A stretch of 32,000 nt of DNA from Candidatus Odinarchaeota archaeon (GTDB lineage: Archaea > Asgardarchaeota > Odinarchaeia > Odinarchaeales > Odinarchaeaceae), in the NCBI GenBank assembly GCA_038826135.1, contig JAWBON010000004.1, positions 5,159-37,158 of the forward strand, given 5' to 3'. The stretch's first letter is position 1; each line of letters starts with the position of its first letter. The position numbers and the translations under genes were made by a program. The notes under the pieces were generated by a model. That model did not search any database. It was not told the DNA's origin and saw nothing but the letters and a program-made list of their open reading frames with translations. This document shows positions 17,997 to 21,129 of this stretch, piece after piece.

Positions 17997-19515
17997 CTAA
18001 GCCATAAGTTTGTTAATAGCTTCAATTATAGCTTCAACACCGGCAATCACTATATCTTCACTAGAACCTCTGGAGGTAAAAACCCTCTTATTTTCATCCT
18101 CGATTGTGACAACAGTCTCAGCGACGGCTTGAGTTCCCCCTGTTATCGCTTCTAATCTAAACTCTTTAAGTTTGAACGGCGCAACCTCCTCGCTTGCGTT
18201 TCTTATAGCGTTTATAGCAGCATCTATAGGACCCACACCGTTAGCTGCAACTATAACAGGTTTACCCCCTATGTGAAGTTTAACAGTGGCGGTGGGGTTT
18301 ATCCTATTACCTGTAACCACTAGAATATCTTCAAGCTTAATCCTTTTCATATCCGGTGGCAGACTTTGAATAACCGCCCTAGCGATCGAACTTATATCCG
18401 CATCTGTAACCGTGATCCCCTTATCACCTAGTGATTTTATCTTTTCAACTATTATTTTTAACTGTTCAGGCGTGTATTTGAAACCTAAATTATCCAGGAT
18501 TTTACCAACACCGTGACCTCCACTCTGCTTCCCTGCAACTATCCTGCTTTTAGCCCCTATCTCCTCAGGCGATATGGGTTCATACGTCATAGGTGATTCT
18601 ATAACACCGTGAGCGTGAATCCCACTTTCATGTGAAAAAGCATTCTGGCCAACTACCGCCTTATTCGGAGCCAAAGGAATTCCTGTAATTCGCATTATTC
18701 TCTGGGAGGTTTCATAAATCTTCGAGTAATCTAGGTTAAGTTTAACCCCATACATGTATTTTAACGCTACAGCTACTTCTTCAAGAGAGGCGTTACCGGC
18801 TCTTTCTCCAAGACCGTTAACACAGCAGTGAGGTTGAACAACCCCCTCCTCTATTCCAGCTAAAGTATTAGCCACCGCCAAGCCCATATCATTATGGCAA
18901 TGTACAGAGATATTAGCTCTTGTAATGCTTTTAACTTCGCGCACTATTTTTTTCATAGCTATCGGGATAGCTACACCTACAGTATCAGGTATATCAAGGT
19001 ATGCGGCGCCGGCTTCGGAGACCTTTCTAAAAACCTCTTTTAAAAAGTCAAGTCTAGTTCTTGTAGCATCTTCAGCTGAGAATTCAACTTCTATTCCATG
19101 ATCTCTGATATATTCAACAGCCCAGACCGCTCTCTCCACAACCTGTTGGGGATCCATGTGCAGCTTATATTTCATGTGAATTTCGCTGGTAGCTATAAAA
19201 GTATGAATCCTAGATACACTGCAATCTATGGCTTTATCAATATCCTCTTTCTTAGTTCTAGCTAAAGCGCATATTTTCGCTTTAAGCCCCTCATTAGCTA
19301 TCTGCCTGACTGCTTTAGCCTCACCCTCACTTGCAATCGGAAAACCCGCTTCTATAACATCAACCCGTAGTTCATCTAGTAAATGAGCTATCTCTACTTT
19401 ATCATCACTTGTTAAAGCAACACCAGGAGTTTGCTCACCATCCCTAAGTGTTGTGTCAAAAACATATATTTTTTCAGGTAAACTATCAAAGGAGAAAAAT
19501 ATTCCTCCACGCCAA
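17997..19515 (-). CDS. leuA: 2-isopropylmalate synthase; needs a +1 frameshift near codons 7-9 (about 505 aa)
   Basis: DTTLRDGEQTPG, IEAGFP, RIHTFIATS, HCHNDMG, GERAGNA, FSHESGIH and a C-terminal regulatory domain (GVGPIDA). The catalytic frame is open from 19487 with no ATG/GTG/TTG until 19175. CimA is not fully excluded. Confidence 0.8.
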
Positions 19516-19526
19516 TTTCCACACCT
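19483..19526 (-). promoter_or_regulatory. Candidate leader and +1 frameshift cassette of leuA
   Basis: AGGTG, 6 nt, then TTG GCG TGG AGG AAT ATT TTT CTC CTT TGA TAG. The +1 frame continues TTC TCC TTT GAT AGT TTA CCT GAA AAA. Confidence 0.4.
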
Positions 19527-19585
19527 ACCAGTATTATATCTTTAAAAACGGTGTCTAAAACAGTATATTAACCTTATTCCGGTGT

Positions 19586-19957
19586 TTAATTTAATCGTAT
19601 AAGATGCGAGCCGCATTTACTCTCACAATCTGAGGAGCCGAATCCTGGAATAAAAACCCCTAGCCCAGCTATTTTTTTAATAAAATCGCATTCACTCAGA
19701 CATTGGCCTTCAATAATGCATAAACCTTTAATTTTAACATGACTCGATGAGAGCAAATAGTCTATATGCCAGCGTGTTTTTTTACAGGCCCGTAAATGTC
19801 GTAAAACCCTATTCACCAGCTCAGAACCCCCTCTCTTACCTTTACCGGAGCCTACGTAAACGTATAATCCTTTTTTGAAATCCACTAAGCCGAGAGAACC
19901 TGTTTTAAGTTTGAACCCCTTACTAACACTTATTAAAAGATAATATATCCCTTTCAA
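19586..19957 (-). CDS. DUF123 / GIY-YIG (Uri) superfamily putative nuclease
   Basis: KGIYYL, GLYVYVGSG, RVLRH, KKTRWHIDYLL, EC and GFGSSDC motifs. Confidence 0.85.
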   Translation of the reverse strand: MKGIYYLLISVSKGFKLKTGSLGLVDFKKGLYVYVGSGKGKRGGSELVNRVLRHLRACKKTRWHIDYLLSSSHVKIKGLCIIEGQCLSECDFIKKIAGLGVFIPGFGSSDCESKCGSHLIRLN

Positions 19958-20181: not shown

Positions 20182-21129
20182 ATGAACGGGGGGTTCGGAA
20201 TAATTCATAACATATACATCTTAGACACTAACGGTATTCCCATCTTCACCCGTATTTACGGTGAGATAAAGGTGGATCCGACTTTAATCTCAGGGTACAT
20301 CAGCGCGCAGAGCTCGTTCTTTAAAGAGATTACAGGCCAGGACCTAGAAATGTTCGCAACTAAAGATTATAATTTCTGGCTTAGAAGAGTCGGCAGATTT
20401 CTCATAGTAATCGTCACTAGTAAAGACGTTGACCCGAAAATCATGAAGTGGAAACTATCTCAGATTCAACTAGCATTTATTATGAACCTTGAAAAAGATT
20501 CTTTAAAAACGATGATCGATTCAGTCACATTTAACTCCCTTAATTTTATTTTAGATAACACCAGGTCTGATGATTTAACCACTATAATTAAACATTTAAT
20601 CTTAGGAATCACTATTATAATAGTGGGACAGAATAGGGAGAGCGTTGCTAAATATATTTACACATTATTAACTGTCTCACCTGTTTATAAGGAAACATAC
20701 TTTTACGAGGATAGAAATGTTTTTTCAGATGGGGCTATAATAGGATCGATTAAAACAGATATAAACAGTATTTTAAGCGATAAAAGTTTCCTTTACTATG
20801 AATTTGAAACCAGCATTATTAAACTTAACAATTTAACCTTTGATTTAAATAAAAAAGCTTTAAGCGATTTCATAAGCGACTTGATCTCAAAGTGCAGAAG
20901 TATGAGTGAGATAACAGGCATAGATTTTATCAGAAATAATCTGAGGAGAATACTGAGAGGAAAGACCGCTATTAAAGAGATAATTATTAAGAAGGGAAAA
21001 CTAAGATTTGAAGACATAATAAACAGTTTAAAGATAAGTGAAGATGATTTTCCAGCAATTTTAGAGCTGTTGCAAGATGATTTAAAAAACATTATAATTG
21101 AAGATGACTCTATTTATTATCAAGGGTGA
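20182..21129 (+). CDS. Longin-domain protein with DENN/folliculin-like middle region and C-terminal winged helix
   Basis: Longin pattern IHNIYILDTNGIPIF...LISGYISAQSSFFKEITG; middle HLILGITIIIVG...YTLLTVSP; C-terminal KEIIIKKGKLRFEDIINSLKIS...ILELL. Confidence 0.65.
   Translation: MNGGFGIIHNIYILDTNGIPIFTRIYGEIKVDPTLISGYISAQSSFFKEITGQDLEMFATKDYNFWLRRVGRFLIVIVTSKDVDPKIMKWKLSQIQLAFIMNLEKDSLKTMIDSVTFNSLNFILDNTRSDDLTTIIKHLILGITIIIVGQNRESVAKYIYTLLTVSPVYKETYFYEDRNVFSDGAIIGSIKTDINSILSDKSFLYYEFETSIIKLNNLTFDLNKKALSDFISDLISKCRSMSEITGIDFIRNNLRRILRGKTAIKEIIIKKGKLRFEDIINSLKISEDDFPAILELLQDDLKNIIIEDDSIYYQG

Follow-up and report, generated by a model that had tools for sequence, protein, structure and literature searches.

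The bacterial release factor 2 gene, prfB, is translated through a +1 ribosomal frameshift at CUU UGA C, with an internal AGGGGG that resembles a Shine-Dalgarno (SD) sequence. The yeast retroelement Ty1 shifts at CUU AGG C and makes a fusion at a fixed ratio. In "hungry codon" frameshifting, tRNA availability sets the efficiency (PMC8211752, PMC2377451), and the +1 frameshift of antizyme serves a metabolic feedback loop as its polyamine sensor and as its effector (PMC8211752). Among archaea, the −1 frameshift of Saccharolobus solfataricus fucA1 is the only experimentally shown case in a cellular gene (PMC8211752, PMC1616953); reviews of archaeal recoding from 2016 and 2021 give it as the sole demonstrated cellular case, with a putative one in a Mg-chelatase, and place +1 frameshifting in a haloarchaeal virus only. 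Here, we report on leuA, encoding 2-isopropylmalate synthase, in a 32,000-nucleotide stretch of DNA ("the window") from a Candidatus Odinarchaeota archaeon (GenBank assembly GCA_038826135.1, contig JAWBON010000004.1, positions 5,159 to 37,158). The gene is probably expressed through a programmed +1 ribosomal frameshift resembling those of prfB and Ty1, a reading to which we give a probability of roughly 0.8.

All coordinates of leuA features are on the minus strand of the window. Ribosomes would begin at TTG 19515 by way of the SD sequence AGGTG and decode M-A-W-R-N-I-F in the 0 frame. With peptidyl-tRNA-Phe on UUU (19497-19495) and the rare leucine codon CUC waiting in the A site, the anti-SD sequence would pair with an internal GGAGG just 6 nt upstream, and the P-site tRNA would move one base forward and re-pair on UUC. 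UCC (Ser) would be decoded next and translation would run in the LeuA frame to 17997, giving an enzyme of normal length that begins MAWRNIFSFDSLPEK; ribosomes that do not shift would meet UGA-UAG two codons further on and terminate there, releasing a peptide of 9 residues. We infer that the frame change takes place on the ribosome. If so, this would be the first +1 frameshift in a cellular archaeal gene, and it would affect a core biosynthetic gene in the archaeal lineage that stands nearest to eukaryotes. No prior report of a leuA or Asgard frameshift was found in the full-text literature searched.

Comparison with described systems

The likeness to prfB lies in an early +1 shift, a P-site NUU that would re-pair one base on, to UUY, an SD-like sequence upstream inside the open reading frame (ORF), a slow A site that would compete with slippage, a 0-frame stop nearby, and a self-regulating, sensor-like logic. 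Two codons after the main site, the Odin clade carries a literal NUU_UGA/UAA as well. Unlike prfB, leuA has a sense codon (CUC) rather than a stop in the A site of the main site, and its SD-like sequence is spaced by 6 nt, not 3; the gene is archaeal and its product a biosynthetic enzyme, and if anything is sensed, it would be charged tRNA-Leu instead of that product. Across loci the A-site codon is CUC, CUU or CGU with the SD-like sequence 6 nt upstream, and a stop follows at the secondary, Odin-clade site only, which sets leuA apart from the prfB type.

As in Ty1 and at hungry codons, the P-site tRNA would slip on NUU with an A-site sense codon awaiting a scarce aminoacyl-tRNA. The Ty1 shift serves a retroelement, whereas that of leuA would be obligatory for an enzyme of an essential pathway and is conserved across families; hungry-codon shifts in Escherichia coli are, in contrast, non-programmed errors. 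Antizyme has the same logic as the leucine loop considered below, in which the feedback is hypothetical for leuA, but in this eukaryotic system the A site holds a stop codon, a pseudoknot lies downstream, and the signal is a small molecule instead of the charging of a tRNA. In leuL attenuation of the bacterial leu operon, as potentially here, Leu codons in a short ORF 5′ of leuA would couple tRNA-Leu charging to output. The bacterial system works through transcription termination, alternative RNA hairpins and four consecutive Leu codons, whereas the archaeal short ORF has one or two Leu codons, overlaps the enzyme and supplies its N-terminus, and output would follow frame choice. With one or two Leu codons, an ORF that overlaps the enzyme, a hairpin of 5-7 bp lacking covariation and no terminator, the locus does not fall within transcription attenuation. 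Like fucA1, leuA is an archaeal cellular gene in two overlapping ORFs with full-length in-frame homologues elsewhere; the fucA1 shift is −1, on an A_AAA_AAT heptamer in one species, whereas that of leuA would be +1 and extends over several Asgard families.

Structure of the split gene

The LeuA frame is open from a stop at 19544-19542 to the stop at 17999-17997 (19541-17997, 514 codons, no internal stops). Its first ATG, GTG or TTG is ATG 19175, which lies 122 codons past the upstream stop and 107 codons past the proposed shift site; the initial annotation had rightly found no canonical start upstream of this ATG, with 104 codons as an approximate length. The catalytic-site motif DTTLRDGEQ (19431-19457, LeuA frame) sits 85 codons upstream of ATG 19175, so initiation there would delete it. 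Of the 605 frames in this genome that stay open for 250 codons or longer, just 3 run for at least 80 codons before any start codon, and the 122-codon lead of leuA ranks second in length; the split arrangement is therefore beyond chance.

The SD sequence AGGTG (19522-19526) is followed, after a 6-nt spacer, by the initiation codon TTG (19513-19515). Across the genome, GGTG is over-represented at 5-8 nt upstream of start codons, so this looks like an ordinary initiation site. The SD region, GGTAGGTG, is kept in 8/8 Odin-clade loci, and the codon at the aligned position is TTG, ATG or GTG, each SD-spaced, in all frameshift-type loci. Read from TTG 19515, the 0 frame (the −1 frame relative to LeuA) gives TTG GCG TGG AGG AAT ATT TTT CTC CTT TGA TAG, that is, MAWRNIFLL and two stops. 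The ORF with its TGA spans 19486-19515, and the TAG is at 19485-19483; reading the sequence again confirmed this short ORF, which the initial annotation had placed in a frame other than that of LeuA. In the LeuA frame, the coding region extends between the shift site and the stop at 17999-17997 (17997-19496).

The protein is predicted to be a full 2-isopropylmalate synthase. It scored 540.8 bits against the NCBIfam equivalog NF002086 (cut-off, 532) and 639 against NF002085 (cut-off, 517), and it matched the Pfam families HMGL-like, HCS_D2 and LeuA_dimer (PF00682, PF22617 and PF08502). The HMGL-like catalytic domain carries DTTLRDGEQ, a C-terminal LeuA allosteric domain follows, and the score lies above the equivalog cut-off; specificity relative to citramalate synthase rests on the profile scores.

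Conservation of the split and of the N-terminus

The frame split is present in 27 loci, comprising 8/8 Odinarchaeia-clade assemblies examined and 19 loci of other Asgard families or metagenomes. Three sister species have it at 90-92% protein identity (site sequences ATATCTTTCTCC, ATACCTTTCTCG and ATCTTTTTCTCA), as do three more Odin-clade contigs (86, 76 and 71% identity) with the start codons TTG, ATG and GTG; it reaches loci of 57-64% identity (L021, L022 and L092-L095), family f3, and families f7 and f24 of the same phylum. The 5′ ends of leuA in these relatives keep the out-of-frame short ORF and not a continuous ORF, which agrees with the initial annotation. As in recoded genes, the split is conserved across species, and both parts are under purifying selection in the 27 loci. 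Ordinary in-frame leuA starts occur in other Asgard families, Nitrososphaerales and bacteria. No further Odin sequences were found among metagenome contigs.

The first seven codons of the short ORF, judged by homology, evidently encode the authentic LeuA N-terminus. A start of the form M(A/V)W(R/K) in frame with LeuA was seen in 21 of the 120 nearest protein clusters, most source-named ones being Bathyarchaeia or Thermoproteota, and in 14 of 30 Thermoproteota genome loci (e.g., MAWRNLLSGEYNLPERV, MAWRNMISGESKLPEKV and MAWRSLFSEEYKLPEKV). The N-terminus of in-frame LeuA orthologues from Bathyarchaeia and other Thermoproteota reads MAWRN(L/M)(L/I)S, with MAWRN, MAWRS and MAWRK starts seen, and the predicted trans-frame product of the window begins MAWRNIFS (MAWRNIFSFDSLPEKI). 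Seven 0-frame codons, one skipped C and then the LeuA frame yield MAWRNIFSFDSLPEKIYVFDTT, which fits the orthologues in length and pattern (MAWRN, two hydrophobic residues, Ser and then LPEK). Likewise, the trans-frame product of locus L095, MAWRNSVSSECLLP, can be set against an in-frame MAWRSMLSRECHLP. Together, the two overlapping ORFs thus correspond to a single protein that relatives encode in one unbroken frame.

Position of the frame change

Upstream of the site, variation is silent in the 0 frame: the start codon is TTG, ATG or GTG, and the Ala codon is GCG, GCT or GCA (Arg, Leu or His in the LeuA frame). In family f24, GAC TTC versus GAT TTT is synonymous in the 0 frame only. Downstream, variation is silent in the LeuA frame (Ser as TCC, TCG, TCA or TCT). 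Locus L007 has a LeuA-frame TAG one codon before the site, and family f24 has TGA immediately before GGA GG, so the LeuA frame cannot be entered upstream. Because silent variation switches frame there and LeuA-frame stops bound it, the junction is NTT-C-TCN (19497-19491); a 0-frame stop lies 2-3 codons past the shift site in most loci.

Two slips had been proposed, UUU_C (19497-19494) and CUU_U before UGA (19491-19488), and both do enter the LeuA frame. The comparative evidence and homology to in-frame orthologues favour the former, with CUC in the A site and a product beginning MAWRNIFSFDSLPEK. At this site, UUU CUC (19492-19497), the P-site tRNA would pass from UUU (19497-19495) to UUC (19496-19494), the A-site CUC lies at 19494-19492, and C 19494 would be read twice or skipped. 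NTT_C is present in 23 of 26 loci (16/16 in clade A and 7/10 in clade B of the LeuA tree described below). The remaining three, of family f24, have UUC_C followed by CUU_U, so that a shift-prone site is conserved in the overlap. The second, prfB-like CUU_UGA (19486-19491) is a back-up candidate; NUU followed by U or C stands there in 8/8 Odin-clade loci and not in more distant frameshift-type loci, and a shift at this point would lose the conserved Ser.

Other routes into the LeuA frame were tried and rejected. For a −1 shift from the third frame (GTG 19510 and an A6 run), neither that start nor the A run is conserved. A shift at the AGG or AGG-AGG codons is disfavoured, L007 having its LeuA-frame TAG downstream of AGG, and termination-reinitiation finds no start codon near the 0-frame stop.

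Candidate signals around the site

The internal SD-like GGAGG (19504-19508; Trp-Arg codons TGG AGG), 6 nt upstream of the shift codon, is a candidate stimulator. In every frameshift-type locus, the shift codon is preceded at exactly 6 nt by GG(A/C)GG or AGAGG. All 27 frameshift-type loci have NGG as the Arg codon (25 AGG and 2 CGG), and in 17 in-frame relatives this codon is AGG (6), AGA (7), CGA (1), AAA (2) or AAG (1), counts that are not phylogenetically independent; in this genome, AGG makes up 19% and AGA 51% of Arg codons. Since GAGG sits 7-9 nt before start codons genome-wide, the internal GGAGG is one base too near the P-site codon, and a +1 move would restore the preferred spacing. 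By the logic of prfB, GGAGG may thus stimulate the slip. In this genome, GGAGG-N6-NTTC at a frame change was found in no gene other than leuA.

CUC is rare in this genome (8.3 per 1000 codons; 8% of Leu codons). The Asn codon is AAT, never AAC, in 14/14 MAWRN-type frameshift loci. Alignment folding found no downstream stimulatory RNA structure. A short hairpin at 19491-19508 pairs GGAGGAA with the shift site UUUCUCC (7 bp, 4-nt loop), and every clade A locus has a version of 5-7 bp; as neither arm varies, covariation says nothing about it.

Alternative explanations

Several observations weigh against a programmed frameshift. The SD-like spacing departs from the 3 nt of prfB, and GGAGG is simply the Trp-Arg codons inherited from in-frame ancestors. 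P-site re-pairing is good for UUU_C only, with first-position mismatches in GUU_C and AUU_C; in the three f24 species with UUC_C, the adjacent CUU_U would be the better slip, and the exact shift site may differ between lineages. Some loci have a usable in-frame ATG (L091, where it is LeuA codon 3; L008, L024 and L026; and L095, where it lies upstream). LeuA-frame codon 3 is ATG or a near-cognate (ATA, ATC, ATT, ACG or CTG) in 27/27 loci, at most one step from ATG, which also speaks for initiation of LeuA in its own frame at the non-canonical ATA 19502-19500, the SD-driven MAWRNIFLL ORF then being a separate, overlapping regulatory upstream ORF. In the NCBI annotation, the gene of the closed Ca. 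Odinarchaeum yellowstonii genome starts at this ATA (P0002, MPFSFNN...) and a second Odinarchaeia gene, P0006, at an ATG in the equivalent position, and the primase gene of this genome may use an SD-spaced ATA. We nevertheless regard ATA initiation as unlikely. The sole nearby SD-like element ends 1 nt before the codon, against 7-9 nt for GAGG genome-wide, and the real SD is 19 nt off; L007 has ATG and then directly TAG in the LeuA frame, although its gene is otherwise intact. Because the short ORF is the true N-terminus, the LeuA-frame "W-x-G-G-I" and the apparent near-cognate codon are shadows of start-GCN-TGG-AGG-AAT, the AT(N) pattern being that of the conserved 0-frame Asn/Asp codon AAT/GAT. 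A mere regulatory upstream ORF would keep neither the MAWRN of the orthologues nor synonymous-only variation in its own frame.

The comparative data say that one base is ignored at NUU-C-UCN, not by what means, and the frame could instead be restored at the RNA level or by unusual decoding, through transcriptional slippage, one-base editing or a four-base-codon tRNA (reading NUUC or CUCN). The T5 run of the window would suit slippage. For the tRNA inventory of this genome, ARAGORN, which is weak on intron-rich tRNAs, gave 12 tRNAs without its intron option and 31 dubious ones with it. Most frameshift-type loci, however, lack a homopolymer there (T3 or no run), and one-base RNA editing is not known to occur in archaea. 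The codon before the skipped C varies by lineage (UUU, AUU or GUU; CUU/UUC in f24), so one quadruplet tRNA could not serve all lineages unless it read CUCN, which is absent from clade B. We therefore hold this family of explanations to be quite improbable. The same T5 run (19499-19495), in a fragmented metagenome-assembled genome of 105 contigs, had led the initial annotation to name an extra T from sequencing error or mutation as its main alternative, and a recently broken pseudogene would look alike. Both are hardly credible and the extra T can be dismissed: an independent ENA assembly (L087, gene 97% identical) has exactly the sequence of the window with the same T5 run, relatives such as ATATCTTTCTCC, ACCTTTCTCG and CGTATTCTCT are split without one, and the 27 loci come from different projects and technologies, two closed genomes among them. 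The remainder of the gene is stop-free, and selection acts on both halves. A programmed +1 frameshift at UUU_C thus remains the preferred reading.

Distribution and origins

Frameshift-type genes occupy three positions in a LeuA tree of 137 sequences. The in-frame MAWR clade is the sister of clade A (Odin, L092, G104, G344/P0011/P0013 and f3; Shimodaira-Hasegawa-like approximate likelihood ratio test [SH-aLRT], 97), the canonical Asgard clade is that of clade B (f7 and f24; support, 99), and P0039, an ambiguous sequence, lies inside the in-frame MAWR clade. The clade B short ORFs (MRRSDF and MQRDGV) resemble the in-frame N-terminus MKRSVF of P0121, a more distant relative in a separate in-frame clade. 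Forcing a single frameshift-type clade was 133 log-likelihood units worse (approximately unbiased [AU] test, p = 0.001, for a group that was defined after inspection of the data, which counts against this result). The tree topology indicates that the split was gained at least twice, or lost several times, at one and the same codon of leuA, and the presence of two separate clades with the same codon argues for function over accident.

Possible leucine sensing

We put forward only tentatively that the frameshift is a leucine sensor, in which low charged tRNA-Leu(GAG) at the rare CUC/CUU would raise slippage and LeuA, and ample leucine would lower them, and which would have arisen two or more times in Asgard archaea at a single leuA position. 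Because CUC decoding in the A site would compete with slippage, LeuA output may rise when charged tRNA-Leu(GAG) is scarce; such dependence on tRNA charging is what the kinetics of hungry-codon frameshifting would lead one to expect (PMC8211752, PMC2377451). In 23/26 loci, CUC or CUU is the 0-frame A-site codon, and leuA is the committed step of leucine synthesis. In three f7-family loci (L007, L025 and L026) this codon is CGU, not Leu, which weakens leucine sensing. CUC is also largely a by-product, as it consists of the skipped C and the two bases that open a Ser (or Phe or Leu) codon, and the Ser is already conserved in in-frame relatives. A true sensor would amount to translational, attenuation-like feedback on an amino-acid pathway, and leuA offers a testable case of amino-acid supply sensed through frame choice.

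Promoter, annotation and neighbouring genes

A TATA-like box, TTTTTAAA (19541-19548), read from the sequence, is a candidate archaeal promoter element of leuA; TTTAAAG-type boxes lie at the same place upstream of leuA in three sister genomes. The DUF123 gene immediately upstream of leuA (window 19586-19957, minus strand) has the same neighbourhood in two Odin-clade contigs (L088 and L089). In more distant relatives, leuC (aconitase family) lies directly downstream of leuA; the window does not have it there.

The public records P0002 and P0006 (sister Odinarchaeia) annotate LeuA from the LeuA-frame ATA (as Met) or ATG right after GGAGGA. Other gene callers shorten LeuA by up to 120 residues, and all of these annotations miss the exon-like MAWRN start. 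With current leuA annotations truncated or beginning at ATA, Asgard pathway reconstructions may score the gene as broken.

Outside the window, the frame of a primase small subunit (PriS-like) in the same genome (contig C47:7585-8880, minus strand; L144:186-1481) lacks a canonical start over 85 codons. It opens directly behind a TGA that lies in the final codons of the PriL-like gene upstream (overlap, GTGAAAGAAAATAGATGA), and the closed Odin genome has the same PriL/PriS layout (L145). Its start is explicable by an SD-spaced ATA (GGTGA, 6 nt and ATA in both genomes) or by a +1 shift from the PriL frame. The AT-rich leuA of a Thermoproteota genome (L131, G530:C9) has no visible canonical start in the LeuA frame, and TTG/GTG stand in the other frame beside T6 and A6 runs; either an assembly error or a frame problem of another kind may lie behind this.

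On the plus strand, window positions 20182-21129 encode a 315-amino-acid protein with a weak match (E = 1e-5) to the first longin domain of FUZ/MON1/HPS1, a eukaryote-like, trafficking-type domain that fits an Asgard genome.

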